From assembly GCA_963742415.1 (NCBI GenBank), contig CAVULX010000003.1, positions 352,001 to 416,000 of the forward strand: 64,000 nt of DNA, written 5' to 3'. Below, piece after piece: positions 16,546 through 56,872 of the stretch; position 1 is the stretch's first letter; each line of letters opens with the position of its first letter. The notes below the pieces were generated by a model. It was not told the DNA's origin and made no database searches. It saw only the letters and a list, made by a program, of their open reading frames with translations. This DNA comes from an uncultured Parachlamydiaceae bacterium. GTDB lineage: Bacteria > Chlamydiota > Chlamydiia > Chlamydiales > Parachlamydiaceae. The position numbers were made by a program, and so were the translations under genes.

Positions 16546-16677
16546 AAACCCTACAGAGGGTTCTGAGAAATATGATAAAGATATGCAAGATCAGCCAAGA
16601 TAAGTGGGATAGATTTTATTTTGGAAAACTTAGATTCCTCTACTTCCTTATCTTATTACACTAGCTATCAGTTTTTC

Positions 16678-16706
16678 TTGCCCTTTAAAACGAAAATGTC
16701 TATGAT
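16678..16706 (+). promoter_or_regulatory. Putative sigma66 promoter for tRNA-Ser(GGA)
   Basis: TTGCCC-N17-TATGAT. Confidence 0.55.
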
Positions 16707-16738
16707 TTTGCCCTTGACGGCTCTGTCAAATTCGCTAG

Positions 16739-16826
16739 GGAAGAGTGTCCGAGTGGCTTAAGGAGCACGCTTGGAAAGCGTGTGTACGCTAAACACGTAC
16801 CGTGGGTTCGAATCCCACCTCTTCCG
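16739..16826 (+). tRNA. tRNA-Ser (anticodon GGA)
   Basis: GGAAGAG/CTCTTCC acceptor stem, CACGC-TTGGAAA-GCGTG anticodon arm, long variable arm, GGTTCGAATCC. Confidence 0.96.
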
Positions 16827-16954
16827 ATTTTCCCACCACCTTACACTATCGGAATAATGTAACGGGCCCCAGCACCCTCTTCCACGCAAAGTGAAAATTG
16901 TGTCAATTGGTTCATTGATTCAATTAATTGGTTCATTTTTTCATTTGTGAATCA

Positions 16955-43711: not shown

Positions 43712-44716
43712 CTATTGACATTCGTCCTTGATTGGGCGCCGCATTAGCATCATGACAGCATCTGTTGGCTTTAATCCTTCGTAGATAATTTTGTAAACCA
43801 TTTCAGTAATCGGCATAGGAACATTGCATTGTTTGCATAATTGGAGAGCTGACATGCATGTATAAGCCCCTTCAACAACTGTTTGAATTTCATCTTGAGC
43901 CGCATTGGGGGAAAGTCCTTTAGCTAATAATTCCCCAAAACGGAAATTGCGGCTGATGTTGCAGCTGCAGGTCATGCATAGGTCCCCCATCCCTGAAAGG
44001 CCGTTGAGAGTTTCGGCTTTGCAGCCCCGCGCCATTGCCAATTTACGGATCTCATGCAATCCTCGCGTCATCAAAGCGGCTTTGGCACTCCAACCTAGAG
44101 CCAGCCCCTCTGAAATTCCGCAGGCAATCGCAATAATATTTTTTAGAGCCCCACCATAGGCCACACCTTGGATATCTGAATTGGGATAGACCCGAAAAGT
44201 TTGGGTAGTGAAACATTCGCAAATCAACTGGGCGACATCTTTACGATATCCCGCACCAACAACAGATGTAGGCAGGTTCCGGATCACTTCTTCCGCGTAG
44301 CCAGGGCCGCTGAGGACCCCTACTTTTGACTTGATTTTTTCCCCTAACACTTCGACCACCACATCGGGGAGCGTCAAACCGGTATTTTGTTCGATCCCTT
44401 TCGATGTGACAACAATGGGGCATGAGGGGGTCATGATATTTTTAACTTGCTCAAAGACAGGGCGAATCCCTGCGGAAGTCACAGATTCAACGATAAGCTC
44501 TGCTCCCTCGAGCACCTTCTCCAAATCCGTTGTGATGGTTAACTTTAGATTGTCCGGTAAAGGGACAGAAGGCAAAAAAGGGTGTTTATGTGTTTTATTC
44601 AGGGTTTCTGCAAGAGCTGGTTTTGTGGTCCATAAGGTGACTTGATGCCCTTTCGAAGCTAGAATAGTCGCTAAGCAATACCCCCAGCATCCTGCTCCTA
44701 AATAGCTTATTTTCAT
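43712..44716 (-). CDS. gpsA: NAD(P)H-dependent glycerol-3-phosphate dehydrogenase
   Basis: LGAGCWG, SKGIE, LSGP, GGALKNIIAIACG, GMGDL..TC...SRN. Confidence 0.95.
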   Translation of the reverse strand: MKISYLGAGCWGYCLATILASKGHQVTLWTTKPALAETLNKTHKHPFLPSVPLPDNLKLTITTDLEKVLEGAELIVESVTSAGIRPVFEQVKNIMTPSCPIVVTSKGIEQNTGLTLPDVVVEVLGEKIKSKVGVLSGPGYAEEVIRNLPTSVVGAGYRKDVAQLICECFTTQTFRVYPNSDIQGVAYGGALKNIIAIACGISEGLALGWSAKAALMTRGLHEIRKLAMARGCKAETLNGLSGMGDLCMTCSCNISRNFRFGELLAKGLSPNAAQDEIQTVVEGAYTCMSALQLCKQCNVPMPITEMVYKIIYEGLKPTDAVMMLMRRPIKDECQ

Positions 44717-44807
44717 GGGTTTAGACTCCAAGCCTAACAATTCGAGTTTTGATTCGGATTATAGCAGAAAAACATTTGGAATCCTAGGAACAAAAAAATA
44801 GGGTGAT

Positions 44808-45848
44808 TTATGATCTATTTTTTAACTGCGCAGCTATTTCCTTTGCGGCATAGGTAAAAACAAAGTCGGCTCCTGCCCGCTTAATGGAAAGCAAGCATTC
44901 TTCCATTGCTTGCAAACCATCAATCCACCCATTTTGGGCCGCAGCTTTAATCATGGCATATTCCCCGCTGACCTGATAAGCTCCTATTGGAATATGGGTG
45001 AGATCCCGTGCTTTTGCAATGATGTCAAGATAGGGCAAAGCAGGTTTAATCAAAAGCATGTCTGCTCCTTCGATATCATCTAAACAGCACTCAAGCAAAG
45101 CTTCACGTGTGTTCGCAGGGTTCACTTGGTAGGTTTTTTTATCGCCGAATTTAGGCGCAGAATTTAACGCATTGCGGAAAGGGCCATAGAACGCTGTAAC
45201 AAACTTGACCGCATAGGAAAGGATGCTCACGCTGGAAAATCCTGCATGGTCTAGGGTATGCCGAAGATAGGCGACCCGCCCATCCATCATATCGCTAGGG
45301 GCAATGACATCTGCGCCAGCTTCAGCAGTAATCAAAGCCATTTTGCTTAATGCCTCTAGGGAAGCATCATTTAAAATTGCACCCTCATCGCTTACAATCC
45401 CATCGTGTCCATGGCTTGTGTAGGGATCAAGTGCAATGTCTACCATCACACACATTTCGGGTAGATGTTTCTTTAAGAGACGAACACTTTGAGAAATGAG
45501 ATTGTCGGGGTTAAGAGCTTCGGAGCCCCACCGATCTTTTTTTTCTGAAGGGACGTAAGCGAATAAGTCGATGGCTCTAATGCCAAGAGCATAAAGTTCT
45601 TCAGTTTCTTTGAGGAGCTGATCCAAAGAAATACGGTAAATGTCCGGCATGCTGGCAATGGGCTGTTTCTGATTTGACCCCTCGACGACAAAGATGGGTG
45701 CAACAAATTGGCTAGGGTGAAGGCGCGTTTCTTGTAGGAGCTCCCTGATAGCAGAACTCTTTCTGTTACGGCGAGGCCGCCGGGTCAAATCGATAGCAGA
45801 AAGGGCTAATTGATTAGTAAAAGAAGAAATAGAAAATGTTTGTGTCAT
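44808..45848 (-). CDS. hemB: Porphobilinogen synthase (Asp-rich, Mg-type metal site)
   Basis: RPRRNR, DIALDPYTSHGHDG, APSDMMDGR, FYGPFR, YQVSGEY. Confidence 0.95.
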   Translation of the reverse strand: MTQTFSISSFTNQLALSAIDLTRRPRRNRKSSAIRELLQETRLHPSQFVAPIFVVEGSNQKQPIASMPDIYRISLDQLLKETEELYALGIRAIDLFAYVPSEKKDRWGSEALNPDNLISQSVRLLKKHLPEMCVMVDIALDPYTSHGHDGIVSDEGAILNDASLEALSKMALITAEAGADVIAPSDMMDGRVAYLRHTLDHAGFSSVSILSYAVKFVTAFYGPFRNALNSAPKFGDKKTYQVNPANTREALLECCLDDIEGADMLLIKPALPYLDIIAKARDLTHIPIGAYQVSGEYAMIKAAAQNGWIDGLQAMEECLLSIKRAGADFVFTYAAKEIAAQLKNRS

Positions 45849-45868
45849 GGGGTCTCCTGGGGAATTTT

Positions 45869-47224
45869 TTAAGGTTCGATATAGCCTTTAGGCAACATAG
45901 TTGATCCTCTCCATTTACGCATTAACTGGAGGGAAGGATAATAAAATTGTTGTGCCAATTCAAAGGGGTTTTCAGCAGACTCTTTCCCTGTGATCTCTTT
46001 CCAGATTTCCCTATCTCTCTGCTGCAAAGCCTCAGCCACCGTCACAGGGCTATCCACTCCTTTTGCGTTTTTAAGCGGGGAAAAGCAAGCTTCTCTAGGG
46101 TAAGCCAAAGCTTTGACTTTTCGAGCAAAGGGCAATATGTCAAAGATGAATTTCTCCCCTTTCCATGCCATTAGCGGACTTGAGTCGGATTTATTTCCAT
46201 TAACAGATTTATAGGCTAAATGAAAAGGCATTTCCCCATATTTTTCAGCCAACGCTTTGATGCTCTCCATGCTAAAGCAAAACAAACTCAAATTAGCGCA
46301 TAGGTGTCTTAAACTTCCATCGGGTACGGCAGCATAACGTTCTTTTTCGGGCATTTCGGAGTATTCAACAACCTTGGCCCGATGTTGATCCTGGACAACA
46401 ACCCCTACCTTTTCTTCTTTATCGCGCCGCATGCAACACTTGATCGTGATTTCATTATTTTGTCGAGCGTGAAAACCCAGTAGATTGGCATCGAAAGGAT
46501 CTGCGAGAGGATTATCAACTAACACGTAATTGACCAATTTGATGCCGGCGTCTTGCCAGGCTTTCCAAATCCCATCCTGGACAAAGTAATGTAGTGAAGA
46601 GCCATTCCCATCCGGTCCCTCAGCCAGAGAGCCTTGAGGATCCAAGAATAAGTTACCCTGCTCATTGAAGAGAGGAGACATTTTTTGCGAGAAAAAATAA
46701 AGTTGCTTTTCTGAAAGGCCAAAATTGCGATTTGAGAAAAAATAATTTTTTGTTTCTTCATCATTTAGAGGAGAAGTCATAATCGCTAAAGGGAGGGGGC
46801 GCCCGGCCAGTTCGCTTGCTGCCAAGGTTTTCTCAGCAAAAAGCTGAAACAAGGTTTTGCGCCTTATGGCTGTGACCGGAAACATCCCTTTAGGTCCTGC
46901 AAAATTTAGTCGAGTCCCTTGTCCCCCGGCTAACAACAGGGATCCACATTTTCCTTCACTTATCAATTGACGTCCCAAAGAGATATCTTGCGAGCTGCCT
47001 GCATTCTCATAGGCCTTGAAGGGTTCAAAGGAACCTGCATAAGGAAGATCTTTTTTTAAAAAAGCCGTTTTCAACACTCTGAAAATGTCTAGGTCAAGTT
47101 GATCAATTTGTTTTAGCAGACGATTTTGTTGATCAGCGGTAAGCTGCGGCCAAAAGTCGAGAAGACTTTGTTGACCTATTGTCGAAAGCTTATCTTTGGC
47201 AAGAGAGTAATTGAAATATGTCAT
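45869..47224 (-). CDS. UDPGP-family UDP-sugar pyrophosphorylase (eukaryote-like UAP/UGPase)
   Basis: LAGGQGTRL..GPKG, PDGNG, VDNPL, VVEYSE, K.EKFIFD, FSPLKN. Confidence 0.9.
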   Translation of the reverse strand: MTYFNYSLAKDKLSTIGQQSLLDFWPQLTADQQNRLLKQIDQLDLDIFRVLKTAFLKKDLPYAGSFEPFKAYENAGSSQDISLGRQLISEGKCGSLLLAGGQGTRLNFAGPKGMFPVTAIRRKTLFQLFAEKTLAASELAGRPLPLAIMTSPLNDEETKNYFFSNRNFGLSEKQLYFFSQKMSPLFNEQGNLFLDPQGSLAEGPDGNGSSLHYFVQDGIWKAWQDAGIKLVNYVLVDNPLADPFDANLLGFHARQNNEITIKCCMRRDKEEKVGVVVQDQHRAKVVEYSEMPEKERYAAVPDGSLRHLCANLSLFCFSMESIKALAEKYGEMPFHLAYKSVNGNKSDSSPLMAWKGEKFIFDILPFARKVKALAYPREACFSPLKNAKGVDSPVTVAEALQQRDREIWKEITGKESAENPFELAQQFYYPSLQLMRKWRGSTMLPKGYIEP

Positions 47225-47229
47225 TAGGT

Positions 47230-47685
47230 CTATTCAAATTGCCGTTTAGTTTTAGGGTATCGCATGGTGGCCAACTCATCCAAGGCGTTCTTTTCTACGT
47301 TAAGGTTAAGAGTTTCCCATTCACCATATTTTTTGTCTCGCAAGTTTTCTATAATTTTCCGTTTTTGCATTGCCTTCATGACCTCTCTCCTTCTTAACTC
47401 TAAAATCGCTTGCGCTTCCCGAACGATAATTCGCTGGTGATCGATTTTCTTTTTAAGCACCTCTAAGTAATCGTAATTCATCGTCAAGGATTGGGGATGG
47501 ACATTGTTTTTTTGCAAAACACGAATGTGATCTGTAACTCGATCAAAGTCGCGATGAAATTTTTCTAATATCATGGACATTTTTTGCAATATTAAATGGG
47601 CCTCAAGCAGGTTTCTGTGAGCGATTTCTTCCTTCAAATGCCTAACTTTAAGCAAGGAGGCGAGATTAAAATTAAATTTTTTCAT
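47230..47685 (-). CDS. fliJ: FliJ-like flagellar export stalk protein
   Basis: MKKFNFNLASLLKVR...RKIIENLRDK...EKNALDELA pattern; overlaps the fliI stop. Confidence 0.8.
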   Translation of the reverse strand: MKKFNFNLASLLKVRHLKEEIAHRNLLEAHLILQKMSMILEKFHRDFDRVTDHIRVLQKNNVHPQSLTMNYDYLEVLKKKIDHQRIIVREAQAILELRRREVMKAMQKRKIIENLRDKKYGEWETLNLNVEKNALDELATMRYPKTKRQFE

Positions 47686-48994
47686 TCTTTACGATTTCTT
47701 TTAAAAGCTTTTGCGTCATCTCAAAAGCAAACGACTCATTTGTTCCTTGCGACAAAAAGGATCTAATTCGGCCAATTAACATCACAGCTTCGTCAATTTT
47801 AGCATTTGATCCAGCCACATAGGCGCCAATGTTGATCAAGTCTTCAGCATCTTTATACACCTGCAAAATATCCCTTAAACGACCGGCCATATAATATTGC
47901 TCGGGTGTCGTAATAGCCAGCATCAGCCTAGAAAGGCTCTGTAAGACGTCTATGGCAGGATATTGGTTGGCTGAAGCTAATTTCCTGGAAAGAACAATGT
48001 GTCCATCTAGTATCGCCCTTACGGTATCTGCAACAGGATCATTCATGTCATCCCCTTCAACGAGGATTGTATAGATCCCCGTAATGACCCCGTGGGCAGA
48101 ATTTCCAGCCCGCTCTAAAAGTTTTGGCAAGGTTGCGAATACGGAAGGCGTATATCCCCGCGTGGCGGGAGGTTCCCCAATGGCTAAACCTATTTCTCGT
48201 AACGCCATAGCATAACGGGTGATGGAATCCATCATGAAGACGACATTTTTTCCTTGATCTCGAAAAAATTCGGCAATAGCTGTTGCAGTGTAAGCCCCTT
48301 TCGTTCTTAGCAGCGCCGCTTGATCAGAGGTTGCGACTACAACCACTGAACGGGATAAACCTTCCGGTCCCAATTCCCGTTCGATAAATTCACGCACTTC
48401 CCTTCCACGTTCTCCGATTAAAGCGATCACGTTTATATCTGCAGTGGACATTTTGGCTATCATCCCCAAGAGGGTTGATTTTCCCAAGCCGGCGCCGGAG
48501 AAAATCCCTAATCTTTGCCCTCTTCCTATGGTGCAAGTGGAATCGATCGCTTTGATTCCGGTCGATAAAACTTCGGAAATTAATTTACGCTTGAGAGGGT
48601 GGGGAGGGGGAGCCATGATAGGATAGTATTTTTCTGCTTTGATCGGCCCTTTGTCATCGATGGGATTTCCCACAGCATCCAGAATTCTTCCACACATTCT
48701 TTCCGATACAGCCACCAAAGGGACTTTTTTTGTCGGATAGACTTCGGAGCCCGGCGCTATATGGGTCATTTCTCCTAAAGACATTAATAAGGATTTATTA
48801 TCTTTGAAGCCAACCACTTCACAAGGGATAGCTTCTCCCTGCCTATTGAAAATGTAGCACAACTCACCCAGGTGGACTGCAGGGCCGGCCGATTCGATAA
48901 GAAGACCGATGATTTGTGTGACAACGCCACTTGTGGATAATCCCGACCATTTTTGGACCGCTTCGATTTCATTTTTTAGTGAGAAAGTAGACAT
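47672..48994 (-). CDS. fliI: Flagellar-type export ATPase
   Basis: GQRLGIFSGAGLGKST, IGERGREV, DSITRYA.A.REIGL..GEPP, LDGHIVLSR. Start placed at MSTFS. Confidence 0.92.
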   Translation of the reverse strand: MSTFSLKNEIEAVQKWSGLSTSGVVTQIIGLLIESAGPAVHLGELCYIFNRQGEAIPCEVVGFKDNKSLLMSLGEMTHIAPGSEVYPTKKVPLVAVSERMCGRILDAVGNPIDDKGPIKAEKYYPIMAPPPHPLKRKLISEVLSTGIKAIDSTCTIGRGQRLGIFSGAGLGKSTLLGMIAKMSTADINVIALIGERGREVREFIERELGPEGLSRSVVVVATSDQAALLRTKGAYTATAIAEFFRDQGKNVVFMMDSITRYAMALREIGLAIGEPPATRGYTPSVFATLPKLLERAGNSAHGVITGIYTILVEGDDMNDPVADTVRAILDGHIVLSRKLASANQYPAIDVLQSLSRLMLAITTPEQYYMAGRLRDILQVYKDAEDLINIGAYVAGSNAKIDEAVMLIGRIRSFLSQGTNESFAFEMTQKLLKEIVKNEKI

Positions 48995-49324
48995 AAAAAT
49001 TTTAAGAGATAAACCCATCACTCAGGCTTATGTAGAAATATTTATATTCTCTTTTACTGTCAACCAAATGTTCAAACTAGGAGGGAGTTTACAAAGTCCT
49101 AAGTTCTTCATTATTAACATTCTTATTTTTTTCAGTTTTTTTAATATTTTAAAAAAAATCAAATCTTTTTTGTAAAGAAAAATCTATAATTTTTAACTAA
49201 AAATGGTTTAAAAATGGGCTTTTTGATTTCAGTTTAAATAAAATATTATTATGTTATAATTATATATAGATTGTAGAGGATATATCGATTTTAAAAGCGT
49301 AAGCTTTTTGGAAGGAGAAAAATT

Positions 49325-49633
49325 ATGAGTTCCAATGTAAATAATACATCATCAAGCACAAGTGATCCACTTGATGATCTCGCAATTTTTTACACAAGTA
49401 ATGCAAATAACAAACAACAACAAGATTCGATGGATCCTACAGATCCTACCAGTATCATGTATGATCCCACTTTGGATCCTTGCAGTCCAAAATTTGGTGC
49501 CGTTAGCGCTGCAATTAATGGCCCGCAAGCTGTTAATGCTGTGAATAACAACACGGTAAATCCTATAGCCGTTGATGATGATAACGATAGGGCTGGCCGG
49601 AGAAATTTACGCCGCGTGGTCGATAGGATCTAA
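49325..49633 (+). CDS. Small low-complexity hypothetical protein inserted antisense between fliH and fliI
   Basis: GAAGGAG RBS; rich in S, N, D and P. Confidence 0.65.
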   Translation: MSSNVNNTSSSTSDPLDDLAIFYTSNANNKQQQDSMDPTDPTSIMYDPTLDPCSPKFGAVSAAINGPQAVNAVNNNTVNPIAVDDDNDRAGRRNLRRVVDRI

Positions 49634-49695
49634 AATAACTTCCACGTGTTGTTGTCCGTATCCATTCCCAAATTATAAGTAGGTGTTTTTTTTGT

Positions 49696-50397
49696 TTATG
49701 ATGATAAAGTTAAAATTTCCAAATCAGATAAAAGACGATTAAGGTCAAAATTGACCAGTCCTAATGTTGTTTCTAAGCGACAACTGCCCCTTTCCATCCA
49801 GGGTGTTGAGATAAAGTTGACATCTTTTAAATCTTCCCGTTTATAGCCGAGCGCAGAAAGGTGGTTTTGCACCATTTGCAGGTCTTCCTGCGATAAAACA
49901 ATATCGATAGGGACATCTTTTAAGAAGGACTTTGCTTGGGTCAATAATTTTTCTAATAAACTGTAAAAGATCTCTGGATTGGTTAAGTGAGCACGAAGTA
50001 TTTTTTCGCAAACTGCCAAAGAAAATTTGATCAGTTCGGGCTTCACCAGCTCAAACATTTCTTCTTTTCTCATTTGAAAAGTTGAAGCGGTGACATTAAG
50101 GAGTTCGGCAGCTGACTTTAATTCGTCCCTAACATTAGCCACACCTTCTTTATATCCAATCTCTAAGCCTTCGCTCTTGCCTGCTTCGTACCCTTGCTCA
50201 TGCCCCTCTTTCAAGCCTTGAGAATGCCCTTTTTTTTCGGCCATTTTTAAGAGTTTTTGAAGTGTTTTTACAGAAGGGGGTTCTGAAGTCTGTTCTGCCT
50301 CTCCGTTCTCTTCTTTTACCCCTGAATCTTGTCCGTAAAAGACAGCCCCTTCAATCTTAGCCCCGTGGATCACTTTTTTAGATTTTGAGACGTTCAT
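49696..50397 (-). CDS. fliH: FliH-like export stator protein
   Basis: GxxxG repeat helix (GHSQGLKEGHEQGYEAGKSEG), GSCRLETTLG; overlaps the fliF stop. Confidence 0.85.
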   Translation of the reverse strand: MNVSKSKKVIHGAKIEGAVFYGQDSGVKEENGEAEQTSEPPSVKTLQKLLKMAEKKGHSQGLKEGHEQGYEAGKSEGLEIGYKEGVANVRDELKSAAELLNVTASTFQMRKEEMFELVKPELIKFSLAVCEKILRAHLTNPEIFYSLLEKLLTQAKSFLKDVPIDIVLSQEDLQMVQNHLSALGYKREDLKDVNFISTPWMERGSCRLETTLGLVNFDLNRLLSDLEILTLSS

Positions 50398-52373
50398 GGG
50401 GCCTCGCCTTGCACTTCTTGCATAGCATGATGGAATTTATGTGAAATTTCAGGATTGAACATTTTTATTTTTTCAATGATGACCCGTTGATGCCTTTCGG
50501 GTAAGCTATTAAAGATAGATGCAGCCACTTTGAAGCTCTCAGCCATTTTAAGTCCATACTCCAAAGAGGTTCCCCCCAAAATCCCTGGAAGAGATCCTAG
50601 TAATAGTTCAATCTGATTCGGATCTGTTTCATCAAACTGAGCCATTTCCACCAGGACGTGAGCTTGCAAATCGATCGGCATCCTATTTAACACAACCGAA
50701 GCTCGCTCTTGAGGTAATGAATACAGGATTAAAGCAATGGTTTGAGGAGATTCCTGACCAAGAAATGCAGCAATTTTAGAAGGTTCCCCTTCAGTCAGAA
50801 TTTGCTTAATTGACAGCGGTTCATCTGAGTGCCCTGTTTTTCCGTCATTCTTGCTCAGAATGTTTGGCCGATCTTCCAACTGGGCTTTAATTGCTTCTAG
50901 AACCCCTTCTAGATCTTCTAATCTTTTTTTCTTAGTTCCTTCTTCAGCGGCTTTTAAAACCGAAACCCTTTTGGAATGTTGTTGCACGCGGAACATCATA
51001 TAGAAAATCCCGAAAACGCCCAAAGTGATGATCGCCACAAGCGCTGTGGTTATCGAATTATTTTCCGACCCTGGGGAAATTGCCTCTATCATGACTGGAG
51101 GGGGAGGGATCGGCGTCCGGTCGAACTTAATAAAATTAACAGACTGCGAAACATGAGCTGTATATCCTTTGAGGATGACTTCGAGCTGACTTTCGATATT
51201 TTTCTTCAATTTTTCTTCATTCGAAGCAATCTGATTTTCGTTTTGCTCTACTCCTTTAGCCGGAGCAAAAATTTGGTCGTCGATTAACACACCTATCGAT
51301 AAGGCATCTATTTTGCCGGGCACACTGGTAATTTTGACATGGTCTACGGGCACTGCCATTTGTCTAAACTGTTGCGTTGCGAATAGCTCGGGTTGATTCT
51401 GAGAGGAAGGATTGCCTCCGTTTTGTTCGGAAGATTTCGATTGCTCTTTTGCTTTAATCGGTTGCTCGCCTGTCTCAGAAATAGACGTGACAACGGACGA
51501 CCCTAAGCTAACTCCGTCAACCGAGCCGGTGTAGACTTTTCTTTCTTCAGAAATTTTATTTCTATTCATTGTCACTTGCACAGTACTATAAAAGTTGCCT
51601 GCGCCCACCACAGTCGTTAGCATCCCATCAATTTTTGCTTTTAAATATCCTTCTGCAGATAACTCCGCATTGCGAATCGAATCCAAGCCCCCTTCAGGAT
51701 CTATGGCTTGATAGAGGTGCCCATTAGTGTCGGAAATCGCCACCATATTCCCGGTAAGGCCTCTGACCGCTCCGGCAACATGAAAGGTAATGGCACGCAG
51801 TTCTTGAGAATTTAAACGAGCGCCCGGTTTCAAGCTTAAGATGACAGAGGCTTTAGCTTTGTAGTTTGCAGCCCCAAAAGGACGGGGAGGGGGAACATCA
51901 AGAATGACGTTAGCGCTTCGTACATTCTCAAATTGGGAAATATCATTTTCAAGCTGCCCTTTAAGTGCCCTTAATTCAAGAACCTGGAGCTCTTTTTCCC
52001 CTTTAATCCACGTGCTGCTATCGAAAAGCTCAAATCCTTTTTTCGTTTGCGTTTTTGGCAATCCGTTGAAAGCCAACTCTGCTCGCACCTGGTGTTCTTT
52101 CTCTTTTGGAATCCATATCCCTTTGTTTTCGGAAATTTTATAAGGAATATTTGCGCTTTCAAAATAGGCTTTAATTTGTGCAATATCAATGCTTTGCATC
52201 CGTTCAGGCGAATACAGCATCACATAGTTCATTGAATTGGACATGATCAGCACGACCGTCCCTAGCAAAATAAGTAGCCCTAGAATAGCAGCAAAAGCGG
52301 TTTTTTGAGAAAGCTTAAGATCCAGCCAAAAAGTTTTTAGCTGCTGTAAAAAATTTGCGAAAAAGGAATACAT
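50394..52373 (-). CDS. fliF: FliF M-ring protein fused to a FliG middle-domain-like segment
   Basis: TM, GLP...GFELFD, RALKGQLENDI, KASVIL, VAGAVRGL...V.ISD, second TM, then FLGQESPQTIALILYSL (FliG EHPQ motif). Confidence 0.88.
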   Translation of the reverse strand: MYSFFANFLQQLKTFWLDLKLSQKTAFAAILGLLILLGTVVLIMSNSMNYVMLYSPERMQSIDIAQIKAYFESANIPYKISENKGIWIPKEKEHQVRAELAFNGLPKTQTKKGFELFDSSTWIKGEKELQVLELRALKGQLENDISQFENVRSANVILDVPPPRPFGAANYKAKASVILSLKPGARLNSQELRAITFHVAGAVRGLTGNMVAISDTNGHLYQAIDPEGGLDSIRNAELSAEGYLKAKIDGMLTTVVGAGNFYSTVQVTMNRNKISEERKVYTGSVDGVSLGSSVVTSISETGEQPIKAKEQSKSSEQNGGNPSSQNQPELFATQQFRQMAVPVDHVKITSVPGKIDALSIGVLIDDQIFAPAKGVEQNENQIASNEEKLKKNIESQLEVILKGYTAHVSQSVNFIKFDRTPIPPPPVMIEAISPGSENNSITTALVAIITLGVFGIFYMMFRVQQHSKRVSVLKAAEEGTKKKRLEDLEGVLEAIKAQLEDRPNILSKNDGKTGHSDEPLSIKQILTEGEPSKIAAFLGQESPQTIALILYSLPQERASVVLNRMPIDLQAHVLVEMAQFDETDPNQIELLLGSLPGILGGTSLEYGLKMAESFKVAASIFNSLPERHQRVIIEKIKMFNPEISHKFHHAMQEVQGEAP

Positions 52374-52490
52374 GATAAAGCTAACCTTATAAATTAAGAA
52401 GATAGCTTTTTATTTACAGCAGATGGAACGGGAAATCAAACTAAATTTTTTAATTACCTTGGTTTCTTTGACTGTGAGGGTGTTTAAGTT

Positions 52491-53546
52491 CTAATGCTTC
52501 AGGATTTTTTGGAGCTCATCGTAGACCTCATCGACTCCGATCCTTTTCATGCAACGAAAGTCGATGGGGCAGACTCTTTTGTAGCATGGAGAGCATTCGA
52601 CCCTCTTGTGGATCACCTTTCCTAAATTATAGGGACCTGTTTGAACGTCGCTTGTCGATCCGAATAAAGCCAAAAGCGGAGTTCCTAGAGCTGCTGAGAT
52701 GTGCATCGGTCCGCTATCGTTCGTCAGTAAGACTTTACACAATTGAATGAGGGCCATTAACTCCCTTAAATTCGTTTTTCCGGCCAAGTTTAAGACTCTT
52801 GGGGGCAAGTCTTTGCATATCTCATTCACGAGCGGCGCCCCGGCGGGATCGCCAAAGAATAAAACGACATTTTTCGGTTCTTCCAATAAACGTTCTGCAA
52901 TGTTGCGAAAACGGTCCGGCAACCAACATTTAGACGAGCCATAAGCGGCCCCGGGATTAATTCCGATGAGAGTATGAGTATCAGGTGAGGCTTTTAAATT
53001 GAGAAGAAGTTCCCGTGCCGCTTCCGTTTCTTCCTTACTCACATAAAGCTTTGGGGGGGTAGTGGAAAGTGGAATCCCCAGCGGCTGAAGCAACATCTTG
53101 TAAGTGATAACAAGATGCTGTGTTTTTCTTTCTTTTGGAAAGGGAACCGCTTTATTGAGAAGCCAACTGCGGCAATTGCAGGTAAAACCAATCCGGTTGC
53201 CGACTTTCCCTCTCCAAAACCACCAAGCTGAAGAAAAGGAATTGGTAAGCAAAACACCCAAATCGTATTCTCCCCGTTGCAATGATTCAATGATTTCTAA
53301 GTGTTGCCAGCGGTGGATCCACCCACTAGGGCGGTGATAGCTATAGATTTCGTCGAGATGGGGGTCATGCTTTAAAAGAGCTGCGACATTGGATTGACAC
53401 ATGGCAGTTATACGAGATTCGGGCCAGCGTTTCCTGAGATCGGCTAAAACTGGAGTAGCCATCACGAGATCACCTAACCAATTCGGCATTCGAACAAGGA
53501 TGTTTTTTGGTTCTTTCGGCGGCCAAGATTTTTCCTGAAATTTCAT
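52491..53546 (-). CDS. waaF: GT9 lipopolysaccharide heptosyltransferase II-like
   Basis: RMPNWLGDLVMATP, INPGAAYGSSKCW, TNDSGPMH..AALG, CSPC..R.CP....CM. Confidence 0.88.
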   Translation of the reverse strand: MKFQEKSWPPKEPKNILVRMPNWLGDLVMATPVLADLRKRWPESRITAMCQSNVAALLKHDPHLDEIYSYHRPSGWIHRWQHLEIIESLQRGEYDLGVLLTNSFSSAWWFWRGKVGNRIGFTCNCRSWLLNKAVPFPKERKTQHLVITYKMLLQPLGIPLSTTPPKLYVSKEETEAARELLLNLKASPDTHTLIGINPGAAYGSSKCWLPDRFRNIAERLLEEPKNVVLFFGDPAGAPLVNEICKDLPPRVLNLAGKTNLRELMALIQLCKVLLTNDSGPMHISAALGTPLLALFGSTSDVQTGPYNLGKVIHKRVECSPCYKRVCPIDFRCMKRIGVDEVYDELQKILKH

Positions 53547-53626
53547 ACTGTTTGCCTTGATTAAATCTTGCCTTCTATCATAATAGTATTATGCTAAAGT
53601 TGAAAGGATAAAAGGAGATATACCGC

Positions 53627-56600
53627 TTGACTAAGACAATTTATTCAGAGGAAGAGATTAAGCAAATTTTGCAAGCCATTTTTCTTGAAAAAAAGCATTC
53701 CAAAGATGTGAAGTTAAAATTGCAAGACAAGACCAATGAATGTGCTCGTTTGCAACATGAGCTTGAAGAACTTCAGAAAAAGATGCAAACGATCCCTTTA
53801 GATGATGTCCGCAAATTGAAAAATCTCCTTTTTGCATTTAAGAAAAAACATGCCCAAGCCCTTTCCTCTATAGATGAAAAAAACAAACAGCTTGCTCAAC
53901 TAACTCAAACAACTTCCGATATAGATGATTTAGAAAGTGAAAACCGTGCTTTAATCTCTCAAATATCAGCTATTAAAGAAAAATTTTACAAAATTCAAAA
54001 CGCAGCCCCCTCGGAAAAAGAGATTAATGTCATCTCAGAAAAGTTCCAAGCAAAGTTGAATGCAGCTAACGAAATCTTAAATAAGGCTCAAGAAGAGCTC
54101 AACGAAGAGCAACAGGAAAAGGTCCATTTTAAAGCTAAGTTGGAGGAGATGACTTCTCTAAAAGAGCATTTCGAAAGACAAAACCTCGACTTAGTCCGGC
54201 AAGTTCATCATCTTGAGCCATTCAAAGAGATGACCTTGACAGCACAACAAAAGATGGCTGAATTTGAACGGATGAGGGAAGAGGATTTCGATGAAATTGA
54301 GAGCTTAAAAGAAAAAATTTCATCTAATACATTGACTGAAGACCAATTACATCTCATTGAAGACCTGAAAGAGCAATTACTTGAAATCAAAGGGGAAAAC
54401 CAAACACTAACCCACCAAGATCTGACCTTAAGGCAACGTTTTGAACAATCTGAAGGGGAACTCACCCTTGTTAAAGAAAAACATTTTCAACTTGCTGATA
54501 AATTAAAACACAGTGAATTGTGCCAAAGCGAAAATCTTCATCGAATTGAAGATCTCTTGATTCAAGTTAAGCAAATGGAGGTATTGAAAGCTTTCCTGAC
54601 CCAAGAAGAGGAGCGAAATAAGGAATTAACCCAAGAACTGAATAAAATAAAAGAGTTCTCGCAAAAAGACCAGAAACAGATTGATGATTTGTTGTTTCAA
54701 ACAAAACAAGTAGAAACATTGAAATCTCTGTTGTCTCAAAGGGAAGAACGAAATAGAGAAATAACTCAAGAACTAAATAGAGTAAAAGAACTCTCTCAAG
54801 GAGACCGGCAGCAGATTGACGATTTAGTGATTCAAACAAAGCAAATAGAGTCCTTGAAGTACTTGTTGGCTCAGCAAGAAGGAAAAAACAAAGAGTTATA
54901 TCAAGAGCTGAATCAACTAAAAGAACTCTTTGAAAATGAACATCTGCAAATTTCAGATTTGTTAATCCAAGCACAGCAAGGGGAAACACTCAAATCCTTA
55001 CTGGCCCAACAAGAAGAAACAAATCAAGAATTGCATCAGGAGCTCAAACGAGCGAGAGAATTCTCTGATAGAGATCGCCAGCAAATTGAAGACTTGTTGG
55101 TCCAAGCAAAACAAGGGGAAACTTTCAAATCGTTGTTGGCTCAGCAGGAAGATATCAACAAAGAATTAAACCTCGAACTGAATCAAGCTAAAGAAATTTC
55201 TGAACGGGATCAACATCATATCGAAGATCTGTTGCTTCATACAAAACAAATTGAGAATTTGAAATCCTTATTTGTTCAACAAGAAGAAGCAAATAACGAG
55301 TTGAATCGGGAGCTGCAACAAGCTAAAGAATTCGCTGAAAGAGATCGCCAGCGAATTGAAAAAATTGCCGCACAACTATTGGAAAAGGACAAAAAGATTT
55401 ATGATTTGCAACATTTGGAAGTACGCCTTAAACGTCTGACTGAGCAAAAGCAAGCCATCGAACAAGAGTTAGAAAAAGTTCAAAATGAAGCCATAAACCG
55501 GGAAAATGTCCTCAAAGAACATCAACAACATCAAGTGCAATTAGAAAGGGTGATCCAATTTCTCAGAGAAAAATCGGAAGGGGCTCGTTTAGAAGTCACT
55601 TCCCTGCAAGAAGAGATTCAGAAATCAGCAGAATCGTTTTTAAAGTTAACAAACGACTTGAAAACAACCAAAGAAGCGCACGATCAACTCGCAGAACAGC
55701 TGAAACACGAACAAGAAGAAAAACAAGAAGTGCATCAGGAGATTACTACCCTGCATTTGCAGGTGGAACAATTGCGAAGCCATCTCACTTCTACACAGCA
55801 AGAACTTAACGAACAACAGTCTGGTTATGAAAAAGCTAAAAAACAGTTGGCTCAACTTGAATCCCAAAATCGGGTATTTTCCGAAACCATTTCCGAAAAA
55901 AACAAAAGTATCGAATTTTTTGAAAAAGAGACAGCTCTGATCAAACAGTCGCTTATCCGTGGTTTGCGAGAAGCTAAAGAGCTTGAGGGGCATTATGCCG
56001 AAGTTGCCAAAGAAAAAGCCTCCATGCAAGCTAAACTGCACCAATCTCAACATCTCTTAGATAAACAAAGAAATGAGATCCACGAACTACAAGAAAAAAT
56101 AAGAAGCGCCGAATCTAATACCTCATCGGCCTATCAGAATATTGAGCAGCTCAATCAACGGCTTGCTGAAAAGCAAACAAATCTTCAGCAACAAGAGGAA
56201 ATAATTAAAGAAAAAGAAGCAACTTTACAAAGTCAGTTGCAACAAATCGAGCTCTTAAAACAGGAGCAATTATCTTTACAGGGAGGATTATCCCACGCTA
56301 AAAATATCATAGAAGAAAAAGAAAATGAGTTGACCCAAGCCCAGCACCATCTCGCCAAAAAAGTCAAAGAAGCAGCCCAGCTTGAAGACAAAAATGAGGA
56401 ACAAAAACATTTAATAGCAGAGCTTCAAGAGACCCTTGTAAAAAATAAAATCCGAATTGCTGAGTTGCAAACAAGCGTCGACATTCAAGAACAGCAATCC
56501 AAACAATCTCAAGAACGGCTTCAAGAAGCCTTAAAAGCAGCTCGTACGCTTGAAACAAAATGGGAAGAAAAATATGGATCCCTTTCCGAAAAATGGGAAG

Positions 56601-56872
56601 CAGCTGAGGGTCGTATCAAAGAACTTGAGAAAATCGAAGAAAAGCAAAAACATTTGCAAGGTTTGCTTTCAAGCCTAGGAAGTTTTTTTGAAGGCCCCAT
56701 TCCGGCAACACCGGTAGAATCCTCTAAATCAACAAGGGGCTCGTTTTTAGAGGAACCCAGAAGGGCACCCCAACCGACAGAAAAGCCGCAAGAGCCTTCA
56801 AAGTCTCCCTATCAAAACCTTTTTAATATGCCCAAACCGCCAGGCCGACCACGCCAAAACTTTTTGGAGTAG
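53627..56872 (+). CDS. Very long coiled-coil protein (1081 aa) with internal 45-aa repeats
   Basis: E/Q/K/L heptads throughout, Pro-rich tail, AAGGAG RBS before the TTG start. Confidence 0.88.
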   Translation: MTKTIYSEEEIKQILQAIFLEKKHSKDVKLKLQDKTNECARLQHELEELQKKMQTIPLDDVRKLKNLLFAFKKKHAQALSSIDEKNKQLAQLTQTTSDIDDLESENRALISQISAIKEKFYKIQNAAPSEKEINVISEKFQAKLNAANEILNKAQEELNEEQQEKVHFKAKLEEMTSLKEHFERQNLDLVRQVHHLEPFKEMTLTAQQKMAEFERMREEDFDEIESLKEKISSNTLTEDQLHLIEDLKEQLLEIKGENQTLTHQDLTLRQRFEQSEGELTLVKEKHFQLADKLKHSELCQSENLHRIEDLLIQVKQMEVLKAFLTQEEERNKELTQELNKIKEFSQKDQKQIDDLLFQTKQVETLKSLLSQREERNREITQELNRVKELSQGDRQQIDDLVIQTKQIESLKYLLAQQEGKNKELYQELNQLKELFENEHLQISDLLIQAQQGETLKSLLAQQEETNQELHQELKRAREFSDRDRQQIEDLLVQAKQGETFKSLLAQQEDINKELNLELNQAKEISERDQHHIEDLLLHTKQIENLKSLFVQQEEANNELNRELQQAKEFAERDRQRIEKIAAQLLEKDKKIYDLQHLEVRLKRLTEQKQAIEQELEKVQNEAINRENVLKEHQQHQVQLERVIQFLREKSEGARLEVTSLQEEIQKSAESFLKLTNDLKTTKEAHDQLAEQLKHEQEEKQEVHQEITTLHLQVEQLRSHLTSTQQELNEQQSGYEKAKKQLAQLESQNRVFSETISEKNKSIEFFEKETALIKQSLIRGLREAKELEGHYAEVAKEKASMQAKLHQSQHLLDKQRNEIHELQEKIRSAESNTSSAYQNIEQLNQRLAEKQTNLQQQEEIIKEKEATLQSQLQQIELLKQEQLSLQGGLSHAKNIIEEKENELTQAQHHLAKKVKEAAQLEDKNEEQKHLIAELQETLVKNKIRIAELQTSVDIQEQQSKQSQERLQEALKAARTLETKWEEKYGSLSEKWEAAEGRIKELEKIEEKQKHLQGLLSSLGSFFEGPIPATPVESSKSTRGSFLEEPRRAPQPTEKPQEPSKSPYQNLFNMPKPPGRPRQNFLE
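54542..55351 (+). repeat. Six tandem 135-bp (45-aa) repeats
   Basis: Consensus QIxDLLxQxKQxExLKSLLxQQExxNxELxQELNxxKExSxxDxQ; units 135 bp apart (e.g. 54677, 54812). Confidence 0.9.

Follow-up and report, generated by a model that had tools for sequence, protein, structure and literature searches.

A natural fusion of FliF with the middle domain of FliG was described for Chlamydiaceae (CT719/Cpn0860 type), in a form shorter than the one analysed here (Bergeron 2016, PeerJ, PMC4768692). Complete flagella were reported in marine and other environmental chlamydiae (Collingro 2017, PMC5604735), and in B. subtilis the flagellar export core provides a nanotube platform termed 'CORE' (PMC6456723). 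Partial chlamydial flagellar gene sets have also been published and the idea of a fusion is already known; what is new is a graded series of architectures across Chlamydiota.

The present locus lies in a 64,000-nucleotide stretch of DNA from an uncultured Parachlamydiaceae bacterium, referred to here as the window. We interpret it as an in-place, vertically inherited remnant of a flagellar operon that would yield a non-rotating export core, and to this statement as a whole we assign a probability of roughly 0.6. The identity of the genes and their origin from an ancestral chlamydial fliF-fliG-fliH-fliI-fliJ operon are very probable; as judged from gene content, the odds that they serve an autonomous working exporter are about even. 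The organism thus appears as a clear half-way stage in the loss of the chlamydial flagellum, with the export core kept and the spinning and swimming parts gone.

Architecture of the fusion gene and its operon

The four genes proposed in an earlier sequence-only reading of this DNA were recovered as open reading frames of 659, 233, 449 and 151 aa, all on the minus strand (Table 1). The product of the first is a full-length FliF joined in frame to ARM_M, helix MC and ARM_C of FliG. YscJ_FliF (PF01514) matched aa 46–221 (E 3e-40), YscJ_FliF_C (PF08345) matched aa 252–381 (33.6 bits, cut-off 23.8) and the NCBIfam fliF model TIGR00206 scored 152.6 bits (cut-off 129.75). For the FliG part, FliG_M (PF14841) was found at aa 531–590 with 62.3 bits (cut-off 25), and positions 114–238 of the 338 in TIGR00207 (fliG) aligned with aa 525–651. 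In the PDB sequence search the RBM1-RBM2 region matched residues 40–287 of Salmonella FliF 6scn (E 6.9e-25), and in the full-length model RBM3 showed strands at 261–282 and 341–365 with disorder at 299–344. The top 13 Foldseek matches of the FliG part in the PDB were all FliG structures, among them 3ajc (E 3e-4, 132 columns) and 4fhr_B (rmsd 3.6 Å over 122 columns), and its alignment to 1lkv reached chain positions up to 131. The domain identity follows from the agreement of Pfam, NCBIfam, PDB sequence search, AlphaFold model and Foldseek. The proposed FliF with two TM helices and a FliG middle domain was thus borne out by Pfam, NCBIfam and the models. The further helix noted beyond that domain was also present, but the frame holds helix MC plus the whole of ARM_C rather than one helix.

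Table 1. Features of the operon and its surroundings (window positions; aa numbers within the fusion protein)
Feature	Positions	Strand	Evidence or remark
fliF-fliG' fusion gene, 659 aa	50394..52373	-	ORF; Pfam; NCBIfam; structure models; PDB sequence and fold matches
TM helix 1, aa 21-46	52236..52313	-	helix 21-46 in full-length model; hydrophobic stretch in translation
Periplasmic RBM1-RBM2, aa 46-221	51711..52238	-	PF01514; match to Salmonella FliF 6scn
RBM3 with low-complexity insert, aa 222-438	51060..51710	-	PF08345; model with long collar-like beta strands
TM helix 2, aa 441-461	50991..51053	-	translation; model helix starting at residue 439
Cytoplasmic helix, aa 462-500	50874..50990	-	own H1 profile; sequence comparison of C-termini
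Fusion-junction linker, aa 501-520	50814..50873	-	mean pairwise identity 0.14; pLDDT <50
FliG ARM_M, aa 521-585, with E541-S-P-Q544	50619..50813	-	PF14841; pLDDT 87-97; alignment to T. maritima FliG-MC 1lkv
Helix MC and loop, aa 586-610	50544..50618	-	alignment to 1lkv and 4fhr; model helix 585-599
FliG ARM_C, aa 611-655	50409..50543	-	alignment to FliG_C-bearing fusions; 1lkv; pLDDT 93-96; Foldseek 3ajc, 4fhr_B
fliH, 233 aa	49696..50397	-	PF02108, 41.9 bits
Low-complexity ORF in fliH-fliI spacer, 102 aa	49325..49633	+	opposite strand; interrupts operon
fliI, flagellar-type export ATPase, 449 aa	47672..49021	-	TIGR03497 FliI_clade2, 635 bits (cut-off 629.8)
fliJ, 151 aa	47230..47685	-	TIGR02473, 57.1 bits (cut-off 50.45)
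Downstream synteny anchors: UDPGP 45869-47224, ALAD 44808-45848, gpsA 43712-44740	43712..47224	-	Pfam
Upstream synteny anchor, family 9 glycosyltransferase	52491..53546	-	Pfam
Injectisome operon: sctJ, (sctK-like), sctL, sctR, (sctS), sctT	59111..63723	+	Pfam; system apart from the flagellar operon

FliG_N reached 22.8 bits in the fusion protein, below the cut-off of 25 and overlapping the FliG_M match, and was counted as absent. On sequence comparison, aa 462–500 is the leftover of helix 1 in the FliF C-terminal tail, the remainder of which is absent: the H1 profile built in this analysis matched FliFs both fused and unfused, and a 'tail' query taken from an unfused FliF had no match in the window fusion protein. 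The protein stops at aa 659, where FliG_C-bearing fusions run through a hydrophobic F-x-F/A stretch into FliG_C; this end falls where FliG_C begins in fusions of 753–754 aa (PF01706 at aa 651–743 of L039). The natural in-frame fusion that lacks FliG_N and the torque domain therefore stood as proposed. Among five relatives the mean pairwise identity was highest in RBM1-2 (0.65) and fell to 0.24 in ARM_C and 0.14 in the linker. ARM_C, weakly conserved and lost in shorter forms, may be under relaxed constraint. Of EHPQR, which we take to be the FliM-binding motif of FliG, only E-x-P-Q is kept; the arginine position is E576, and its lack of conservation was counted against the main reading.

The start of fliH overlaps the stop codon of the fusion gene by 4 nt and fliJ overlaps fliI by 14 nt. 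The best NCBIfam matches of fliH were FliH models, under their equivalog cut-offs. It had been read that fliH, fliI and fliJ follow the fusion; all are present, but fliH and fliI are not contiguous, being separated by a 674-bp spacer. The 102-aa ORF in this spacer had no Pfam family and no second copy in the genome, and its GC was 0.41 versus 0.22 in the flanking spacer. This ORF is absent from the closest relative, and in L029 fliH adjoins fliI. The injectisome operon said to lie next to these genes is indeed in the window, but at a distance of about 6.7 kb, beyond four unrelated genes; the best NCBIfam match of its SctR was NF009438 (250.5 bits, cut-off 179).

The gpsA/UDPGP neighbourhood, expected from Chlamydiaceae, proved common to these (L104) and a flagellated chlamydial MAG (L030). 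The order fliF(G)-fliH-fliI-fliJ-UDPGP-gpsA was shared by the window, L030, L029 and L104, and a family 9 glycosyltransferase gene was also found upstream of the fusion in L076. L030 has the same operon order with fliF (550 aa) and fliG (378 aa, N+M+C domains) separate and adjacent. This synteny of flanking genes from flagellated chlamydiae to Chlamydiaceae points to derivation of the fusion operon in place.

Export genes of the assembly and a possible mechanism

The assembly consists of four contigs and is 84.45% complete by marker genes; absences given here are absences from the assembly. In profile searches FHIPEP, Bac_export_2 and FliP each had two copies. One set, located elsewhere in the genome in flhB-flhA-flhF and fliO-P-Q-R clusters, had flagellar models as best NCBIfam matches (FlhA: 820.9 bits, cut-off 772.1); the other belongs to a complete injectisome with sctU-sctV-copN and sctN-O-Q loci. 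The genome-wide search for export genes thus supplied FlhA, FlhB, FliOPQR and also FlhF, and this complete flagellar-type gate strengthened the proposal of a second export machine. Intact open frames were observed for the fusion, fliH, fliI, fliJ, flhA, flhB, flhF, fliO, fliP, fliQ and fliR, as well as for csrA and ybjN beside the flagellar genes, i.e. for all 13.

The absence of motor, axial and filament genes, noted for the window, held when the search was widened to the assembly. FliG_M occurred in the fusion gene alone, FliG_C and FliM had no match, no FliN was found, and the sole SpoA-domain (FliMN_C) protein was SctQ. Flg_bb_rod, Flg_bbr_C, FliE and MotB_plug had no match each (no rod, hook or stator genes), Flagellin_N gave only a sub-threshold match of 17.9 bits, and the three MotA_ExbB genes all adjoin ExbD/TolR genes. 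A separate complete fliG with mot and flagellin genes, which would imply ordinary motility, was accordingly not found in this 84%-complete assembly.

The fusion could have arisen by an in-frame deletion spanning the fliF/fliG junction, with loss of the whole of FliG_N and of the second half of the FliF C-terminal tail, leaving ARM_M covalently tethered to the MS-ring protein, and a second truncation at the ARM_C/FliG_C boundary could have removed the torque-generating, six-helix FliG_C. With FlhA, FlhB, FlhF and FliOPQR, the fusion would form an MS ring housing the export gate, served by the FliH-FliI-FliJ ATPase complex. The product would be a flagellar type III export core that does not rotate and lacks rod, hook, filament, stator and FliM/FliN ring; it might transport proteins across the inner membrane only, or act as a membrane scaffold, alongside the separate injectisome. 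Its assembly, export activity and substrates, like the function as a second exporter, are suggested by gene content. The FliG stump would form, beneath the MS ring, a 1:1 ring of armadillo domains onto which FliM/FliN would dock in lineages keeping them, and possibly FlhA_C here; in C. pneumoniae pull-downs the C-terminal 70 aa of FliF bound the FlhA cytoplasmic domain (PMC2830194). The C-ring-like docking scaffold is a prediction, with no FliM or FliN in the assembly to dock; both could sit in the unassembled part, since fliM-fliN occurs in G215, the nearest relative sharing this fusion (96% complete, two contigs). A further point against the main reading is that, as rod and FliE are missing, nothing explains what would become of predicted substrates in the periplasm.

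Distribution across Chlamydiota and alternative explanations

Among 301 sampled Chlamydiota genomes, a series was observed from separate fliF and fliG, through fusions retaining FliG_C with FliM in the genome, the window form with a nearest relative still having fliM-fliN, and shorter ARM_M-only forms with the second export gate still present, to the Chlamydiaceae minimum. Rod proteins occurred in 6/301 genomes, exactly the six with standalone FliG. These graded architectures and gene sets fit the earlier suggestion of an intermediate step in the reduction of the flagellum. In the FliF tree there are signs that fusion took place more than once.

The flagellar-derived proteins might build no machine of their own and instead join or regulate the injectisome, for instance by docking of the FliG stump to SctQ or SctL or by action of FliI and FlhA on injectisome substrates. 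For C. pneumoniae, two-hybrid and pull-down experiments showed binding of CdsL by both FliI and FlhA, of CopN by FliI and of CdsU by FlhA (PMC2830194); binding of SctQ, here the only SpoA-domain protein, by the FliF-FliG fusion was proposed by Bergeron (PMC4768692). Chlamydiaceae retain the fusion, fliH, fliI and flhA with one FliP only, so that an autonomous gate is impossible there. However, a purely accessory role needs no complete second gate, and such a gate is kept in the window's genome, in G215 (FlhA, FlhB, FliOPQR) and, with a second FliP, in 15/18 genomes of family f3; FliH is also present here, hence CdsL would not have to stand in for it. We consider such hybrid use unlikely.

It is rather improbable that the operon is a functionless relic heading to loss, with fusion and truncation as mere deletion scars. 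No FliG_M was found in 31 of the 33 genomes sampled from the family to which the window belongs, and 29 of these 31 have a single FliP; the other two (G230, G264) gave two weak FliP matches each (E 1e-38 to 1e-40), which may represent a single gene broken up by fragmentation. Close kin can thus dispense with the system, which also weighs against the main reading. Decay would also fit the poorly conserved ARM_C and linker, the operon split by spacer and opposite-strand ORF, the FliM/FliN missing from this assembly and present in G215, and a fliO-csrA junction in G051, which indicates that fliPQR deletion does happen. Nevertheless, all 13 flagellar-type genes are intact, distant relatives share 65% identity in RBM1-2, both gene overlaps are preserved, FliI and FlhA exceed flagellar equivalog cut-offs, and the reduced set has lasted across whole families, the fusion being kept in 18/18 sampled genomes of f3 and 28/30 of f4.

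Ordinary motility, with the missing genes in the unassembled part, would suit the marker completeness of just 84.45% and the existence of flagellated chlamydiae (six sampled genomes; also PMC5604735), but it is hardly credible: the torque domain is missing from the fusion itself, at least eight gene families must be jointly missing although flagellated chlamydiae scatter them over several loci, and in G215 rod, flagellin, Flg_bbr_C and MotB_plug were not found either. An assembly or gene-calling error joining fliF and fliG, for which no evidence was found and which a single base could conceivably cause as the two genes are adjacent in flagellated relatives, is practically negligible, since the FliG_N coding sequence is absent altogether rather than frame-shifted and the same architecture, of conserved length, occurs in independent assemblies (L029, 657 aa; P0002, P0004, P0005, P0008 and P0009, 600–639 aa; and L079, likewise N-terminally deleted and C-terminally truncated in FliG).

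Comparison with known systems

Buchnera basal bodies are a reduced flagellar system that keeps rod and hook, and the Bacillus CORE sits in fully flagellated cells. The present locus resembles both in keeping a flagellar type III export core without a functional swimming organelle; unlike in these, no axial protein was found in the assembly, and FliG is reduced and fused. With flagellated chlamydiae it shares a phylum-specific gene lineage, the fliF-(fliG)-fliH-fliI-fliJ operon with its flanks and the fliR-csrA-ybjN linkage, whereas in those genomes fliF and fliG (N+M+C domains) are separate genes, and FliM and rod or hook proteins are encoded as well.

The Chlamydiaceae fusion is likewise a natural joining of FliF and the FliG middle domain in a host with an injectisome and without motility genes. 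The order fusion, fliH, fliI, small ORF, UDPGP, gpsA is alike, and the ARM_M profile built here matched both fusions. However, the Chlamydiaceae protein has about 340 aa, retains no more of the RBMs than an RBM2-like part and breaks off within ARM_M (FliG_M profile positions 3–45), whereas the 659-aa window protein comprises RBM1-3, the tail-helix remnant, complete ARM_M, helix MC and ARM_C. Only one FliP, and no flagellar FliPQR, occurs in Chlamydiaceae; the window genome has a whole second gate and FlhF.

In engineered FliF-FliG fusions of Salmonella an in-frame deletion similarly takes away the FliF C-terminus together with most of FliG_N, so that the MS-ring protein and FliG are covalently linked at 1:1 (PMC7355467). 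In the laboratory fusion FliG_C is kept, and switching bias and smaller C rings were discussed (PMC7355467), whereas in the window FliG_C is gone from the protein and the rest of the motor from the genome. The natural counterparts of the Salmonella construct are the FliG_C-keeping fusions of 753–754 aa in P0006, P0078 and L039.

The FliF part and the FliG-derived stump

The four minus-strand ORFs that the sequence-only reading had placed at 47230-52373 were all found there (see table), and its claim that the FliF encoded by the first of them has both transmembrane (TM) helices was borne out as well. The whole 659-aa protein scored 152.6 bits against the NCBIfam FliF model TIGR00206 (equivalog cut-off 129.75), and Pfam placed PF01514 (YscJ_FliF) on aa 46-221 (E 3e-40) and PF08345 (YscJ_FliF_C) on aa 252-381. 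The N-terminal 461 aa aligned with residues 40-287 of Salmonella FliF (6scn, E 6.9e-25). A full-length AlphaFold model built from 13 input sequences (mean pLDDT 68) placed TM1 at aa 21-46 and the start of TM2 at aa 439, and predicted three RBM-like units of alpha/beta fold; two long strands, 261-282 and 341-365, pair with each other around a disordered insert. By the Pfam matches, the 6scn alignment and the model, the two TM helices flank a periplasmic RBM1-RBM2-RBM3 region. The helix upstream of ARM_M, LEDLEGVLEAIKAQL, matched the first C-terminal-tail helix of unfused chlamydial FliFs (H1 profile); for the FliG_N-binding tail beyond that helix, a 45-aa query from an unfused chlamydial FliF gave no match in the window protein.

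In the C-terminal part, Pfam FliG_M (PF14841) matched aa 531-590 with 62.3 bits (cut-off 25), and positions 114-238 of the 338 in the NCBIfam fliG model TIGR00207 aligned on aa 525-651, at 59.9 bits and thus below the equivalog cut-off of 226.7 for a whole FliG. FliG_N and the C-terminal torque domain had been described as absent, and neither was found: PF14842 reached 22.8 bits (cut-off 25) with a match that overlies ARM_M, and PF01706, the six-helix FliG_C, had no match in the window protein or the rest of the assembly. The cytoplasmic 198 aa were modelled separately from a 16-row alignment (mean pLDDT 76.6, pTM 0.70; piece residue n is protein residue 461 + n). This model was all-helical, with confident blocks at piece residues 61-121 (pLDDT 87-97) and 149-195 (93-96). 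A phmmer search of the PDB sequences returned FliG entries only, the best match being to chain positions 9-131 of T. maritima FliG-MC (1lkv, E 7.6e-10); in ARM_C, after helix MC, the alignment to 1lkv and 4fhr reached chain positions 123-131. FliG structures also took the first 13 places among the PDB matches of Foldseek; at the head of the list stood 3ajc, with 27% identity over 132 columns (E 3e-4), and 4fhr_B, with an rmsd of 3.6 A. A library-wide phmmer search with the stump gave 574 matches at E <= 1e-3, in which ordinary FliGs of ~330-350 aa were matched at residues ~100-240. By these results the stump is ARM_M (aa 521-585), helix MC (586-610) and ARM_C (611-655). A FliG middle domain followed by one helix had been read from the sequence; the middle domain was upheld by Pfam, the model and the PDB matches, and the extent had been underestimated, as the whole of ARM_C follows helix MC.

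In an alignment of fusion C-termini, the window protein stopped exactly where two relatives of 753/754 aa, P0006 and P0078 (P0078 is almost the same protein as the fusion of genome G301), run on via a hydrophobic F-x-F/A stretch into Pfam FliG_C. EHPQR is the FliM-binding motif of FliG. The stretch ESPQTIALIL had been likened to it, and E541-S-P-Q544 of the window protein did align with EHPQ of T. maritima FliG. The presumed arginine column was occupied by E576, by hand count in the ungapped 1lkv alignment, and the relatives in the C-terminal alignment likewise had no arginine there.

Constraint was gauged as mean pairwise identity per region among five type-C relatives. Amino-acid identity was used instead of dN/dS because the nearest orthologues were 45-53% identical in protein sequence, at which synonymous sites would be saturated. 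Identity was 0.65 in both RBM1-2 and the first half of RBM3, 0.43 in ARM_M, 0.39 in the tail helix, 0.24 in ARM_C and 0.14 in the junction linker. On this measure constraint appears to act on ARM_M and on the periplasmic part that builds the ring, and ARM_C is only weakly conserved.

Export genes and motor genes in the window's genome

All three genes that had been named downstream of the fusion were identified by Pfam or NCBIfam: fliH by PF02108 (41.9 bits), fliI by TIGR03497 (635 bits, cut-off 629.8) and fliJ by TIGR02473 (57.1 bits, cut-off 50.45). fliH overlaps the fusion stop codon by 4 nt and fliI overlaps fliJ by 14 nt; 674 bp separate fliH from fliI. This spacer contains an AT-rich stretch and an opposite-strand ORF of 102 aa, whose GC content is 0.41 compared with 0.22 in the flanking spacer. 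The ORF occurs once in the genome and had no family match, and the insert is missing from the closest-relative locus (L029). Another cluster-splitting ORF, of 138 aa, was seen on contig 4; a comparison of the two showed no relationship (E 0.16). A scan of 46900-53700 for sigma-70 promoter-like sites gave no signal (15 sites, compared with 13.1 +/- 3.6 in shuffles); within it, the fliH-fliI spacer had a back-to-back pair of 10-of-12 sites.

Location of the features discussed (window positions unless a locus is named)
Feature	Position	Strand	Remarks
FliF-FliG' fusion	50394-52373	-	659 aa
fliH	49696-50397	-	
102-aa ORF	49325-49633	+	Asn/Ser/Asp/Pro-rich, low-complexity; Shine-Dalgarno-like GGAG upstream
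fliI	47672-49021	-	
fliJ	47230-47685	-	
1081-aa protein	53627-56872	+	Glu/Gln/Lys-rich; two genes upstream of the fusion gene; no Pfam match
RHS-repeat proteins	7709-12857	-	two, large (642 and 903 aa); DUF6531 ORF before them
Sel1-repeat and Fic-domain proteins	15610-18049		six Sel1 repeats; near Zn/Mn ABC transporter operon
Six successive same-strand ORFs	31395-36899	+	125-511 aa; no Pfam match
138-aa ORF	L015:10170-10586 (contig 4)	+	opposite strand, between flhB and flhA; no family match
fliO-fliP-fliQ-fliR, then csrA, YbjN-family gene, RNase T-like exonuclease	L016:5547-9273 (contig 4)		
fliM and fliN of G215	L103:6449-7772		fliM 289 aa (FliM + FliMN_C), fliN 144 aa; beside aminoacyl-tRNA synthetase gene
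FliF-FliG_M-FliG_C fusion of G301	L039:7956-10220		754 aa

Several other features of the window were observed. Repeated units of ~45 aa (…DDLL.Q.KQ.E.LK.LL.Q.EE.N.EL.QELN..KE…) are visible in the 1081-aa protein. The RHS locus looks polymorphic-toxin-like and is possibly a split gene. The stretch of six ORFs has a low GC content (0.36-0.38), with an AT skew of ~0.2 across 32-36 kb. The Sel1-repeat and Fic-domain proteins are candidates for host interaction of a kind typical of amoeba symbionts.

The assembly of the window's genome comprises 2.69 Mb in four contigs and is 84.45% complete by marker genes, so that absences are absences from the assembly. FHIPEP, Bac_export_2 and FliP were present in two copies each. 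The injectisome set lies partly on contig 2 (sctU-sctV-copN-chaperone) and partly in the window (sctJ..sctT), and a flagellar-type set, flhB-(138-aa ORF)-flhA-flhF and fliO-fliP-fliQ-fliR, was found on contig 4. The best NCBIfam model was flagellar for every gene of the latter; FlhA (820.9 bits, cut-off 772.1), FliI and FliJ exceeded their equivalog cut-offs, and FlhB, FliP, FliQ, FliR, FliO, FliH and FlhF were below theirs. The export-core set of FlhA, FlhB, FliP, FliQ, FliR, FliH, FliI, FliJ and FliO was complete and distinct from the injectisome paralogues.

Mot, rod, hook and flagellin genes had been reported missing from the window, and profile searches of the whole assembly (84% complete) found none either. 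There were no matches to PF00460 (Flg_bb_rod), PF06429 (Flg_bbr_C), PF02049 (FliE), FliM or MotB_plug, and no second FliG_M over the cut-off; the best PF00669 (Flagellin_N) match, at 17.9 bits, was under the cut-off, and all three MotA_ExbB genes adjoin ExbD/TolR genes. With tblastn, the FliM of G215, the nearest genome with the same fusion, had no match in the assembly, and its FliN matched SctQ only. The sole SpoA-domain protein was the 440-aa SctQ, in an sctN-sctO-sctQ-kinase cluster. Since a second flhAB/fliOPQR set was found and the motor and axial families had no match, the window's genome, as assembled to 84%, has the full set of flagellar export-core genes and none for a motor or axial structure.

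The order fliOPQR-csrA-ybjN-RNase T seen on contig 4 was likewise observed at loci L095, L097, L098 and L102, and at least 15 of the sampled genomes, both flagellated and motor-less, have csrA at a distance of 1.3-3 kb downstream from the flagellar fliP. In G051, a genome with one FliP only, fliO is directly followed by csrA-ybjN-RNaseT, a junction that is an apparent scar left by deletion of fliPQR. The idea that CsrA occurs only together with the flagellar core was rejected, as CsrA was found in 38 of 300 genomes, fusion-less families included; only the physical fliR-csrA linkage holds.

Orthology, origin and distribution of the fusions

Flagellated chlamydial MAGs have a fliF of 540-550 aa and, directly after it, a separate fliG (345-378 aa, with N, M and C domains), then fliH, fliI and fliJ; in one of them (L030), UDPGP and gpsA come after fliJ. 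The same gene order and flanks were found in the window, in L029 and in a Chlamydiaceae genome (L104: fusion of 341 aa, fliH 180, fliI 433, a 122-aa ORF, UDPGP, gpsA), in agreement with the gpsA/UDPGP neighbourhood previously said to be common with Chlamydiaceae. Because order and flanks are common to all of these, these loci are orthologues throughout the phylum. For the fusion, the best reading is that an in-frame deletion over the fliF/fliG junction was combined with a 3' truncation.

The distribution was examined in 301 Chlamydiota species genomes, the window's included, 54 of which carried FliG_M in any form. Standalone FliG (open frames of 349-394 aa) was present in six genomes, identical to the six with rod proteins; FliM was found in these and in G215 (7/301). 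Fused frames of 379-458 aa occurred throughout family f3 (18/18), and frames of ~340-430 aa in 28 of the 30 genomes of family f4, which we take, by its genomes of ~1.0-1.4 Mb and the L104 locus, to be the Chlamydiaceae. In the window's own family the fusion was restricted to 2 of 33 genomes, the window's and G215. A second, flagellar-type FliP was found in the window's genome, G215, the six flagellated genomes and 15 of the 18 in f3, and in none of f4. Two FliP matches each with far weaker E-values in G230, G264, G108 and G266 may be fragments of one gene.

G215 has the same fusion, at 657 aa, and a fliM-fliN pair; searches of it for rod, flagellin, Flg_bbr_C and MotB_plug gave no match. Together with the truncated fusion, the pair would be a switch complex without the torque domain. 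G301 has a FliM in addition to its longer fusion, and the sequence available for it gave no match to rod, flagellin, FliE, Flg_bbr_C or MotB_plug. A graded series of six steps was obtained: a full flagellum; a fusion with FliG_C, plus FliM; a fusion without FliG_C, plus FliM/FliN; the window's genome, with a fusion without FliG_C and with FliM/FliN not found in the 84% complete assembly; family f3, where a short fusion with ARM_M alone goes with a full second gate; and the Chlamydiaceae, with a short fusion, FliH, FliI and FlhA only. RBM1-2, ARM_M, FliH, FliI and FlhA are kept longest in this series, and the whole gate FliOPQR/FlhB, with csrA adjoining, goes together. The locus and its relatives are thereby ordered natural intermediates from a full chlamydial flagellum to the minimal Chlamydiaceae set, and the points in FliF and FliG at which the deletions end are defined.

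To sort 133 FliF-like proteins by architecture, purpose-built profiles were used; BLASTP labelling was dropped as insensitive (32 of 120 without label). An unfused tail was seen in 61 proteins, tail helix + ARM_M + ARM_C in 13, the same with FliG_C in three, tail helix + ARM_M in three, ARM_M only in 35 (five of them Chlamydiaceae) and FliG_C only in one (P0111), and 20 were unlabelled; the total of these counts is 136, as three single rows (P0007, P0021 and P0091) are included in the 13 and the 61. P0091 (519 aa) was observed to be a FliF with a tail and a FliG_N-like piece.

For the FliF part alone, a quick tree was calculated by maximum likelihood, without outgroup, from 80 rows and 442 columns up to TM2; the rows were all 54 with ARM_M together with P0111 and P0091 (56) and 24 unfused proteins of >500 aa, the 20 unlabelled being omitted. 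The window protein fell in a clade with P0003 (L029), P0002, P0004, P0005, P0008 and P0009. Unfused P0010, P0011, P0012 and P0015 nested with fused P0007 and P0078/L039 (SH-aLRT 100), and fused P0088, P0081 and P0111 were placed among unfused proteins; the Chlamydiaceae rows have long branches in this tree and most rows are metagenomic proteins. A tree with all 25 unfused rows grouped, a group chosen after the tree was seen, was rejected by the AU test (delta lnL 248, p-AU 9.5e-5). The junctions also differ: P0007 (685 aa) is a fusion with a piece of FliG_N that ends just past the F-x-F stretch, and in P0111 (501 aa) FliF is joined straight to FliG_C with no ARM_M. Tree placement and differing junctions both fit more than one deletion event behind the FliF-FliG fusions.

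Proposed working and comparison with known systems

The sequence-only reading was right in outline, and the feature is real. In the machine that we propose, FliF rings would form via RBM3 and enclose FliPQR/FlhB/FlhA, FliH2-FliI and FliJ would energise export, and the tethered ARM_M/ARM_C units would make a fixed 1:1 cytoplasmic ring. As stator, torque domain and rod are lacking, it would be unable to rotate or to build an axial structure, and substrates would stop in the periplasm unless other parts were borrowed. Published pull-downs with C. pneumoniae proteins (PMC2830194) recovered the cytoplasmic domain of FlhA with the C-terminal 70 aa of FliF, which are its ARM_M stump; FliI and FlhA were both bound by the FliH-like Cpn0859. 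These interactions suggest that the stump may help to position FlhA_C. Complex prediction of the stump (aa 516-659, C-terminal alignment) with the FlhA cytoplasmic domain (aa 325-690, no alignment) scored 0.00 twice, was run without controls and is taken as a call in neither direction.

Chaperone-CsrA partner switching operates in flagella and in the EPEC injectisome. A wider joint reading, to which we give a probability of only about one in five, is that many non-motile chlamydiae (the window's organism, G215 and f3) would run a second, autonomous, non-rotating flagellar-type exporter, in which an MS ring with a covalently tethered FliG armadillo ring replaces the switch complex. It would be genetically coupled to the conserved fliR-csrA-ybjN module, substrate export would control CsrA-dependent translation and could time the developmental cycle, and the fusion would have arisen several times independently. 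If so, nature would have repeated the Salmonella deletion-fusion experiment several times over.

The role of fliF, fliI and flhA, the handful of 'cryptic' flagellar genes in Chlamydiaceae pathogens, has been obscure ever since the first genomes. The value of the present finding lies in the series of natural intermediates and in making these genes testable in environmental chlamydiae; in culturable amoeba symbionts it can be asked whether there is a second ring complex, what it exports and what the stump binds. Natural FliF-FliG fusions could also be used in structural work on MS-ring/FliG stoichiometry.

The Chlamydiaceae FliF-FliG fusion was described, and SctQ binding suggested, by Bergeron 2016 (PMC4768692); among the papers listed in a full-text search on FliF-FliG fusions, going by titles and the openings of abstracts, this alone deals with a natural one. 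Complete flagella in marine chlamydiae were reported, and differential loss argued, by Collingro et al. 2017 (PMC5604735), and partial flagellar gene sets are known from Chlamydiota/Parachlamydiales (PMC12199754, bioRxiv 10.1101/2023.03.17.533158, PMC5826181); an ancestral flagellum has been inferred (PMC9816063). The accessible portions of the literature on chlamydial FliF/FlhB/FliP, motility and Rhabdochlamydia flagellar genes described no long form, retained second gate or graded series, and supplements (PMC5604735, PMC8242063) may list partial sets.

The natural counterpart of the Salmonella deletion-fusion is the 753-754-aa FliF-FliG_M-FliG_C protein of P0006, P0078 and L039. The window protein and the Chlamydiaceae-type fusion have in common a FliG middle domain fused after TM2 and an orthologous locus. 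They differ in that the Chlamydiaceae-type fusion totals ~330 aa with an RBM2-like part only (the 341-aa protein of L104 covers PF01514 profile positions 91-176 only), whereas the window protein has 659 aa and RBM1-3. The window fusion is a new, longer variant of the published fusion, in a fuller export core than the Chlamydiaceae set.
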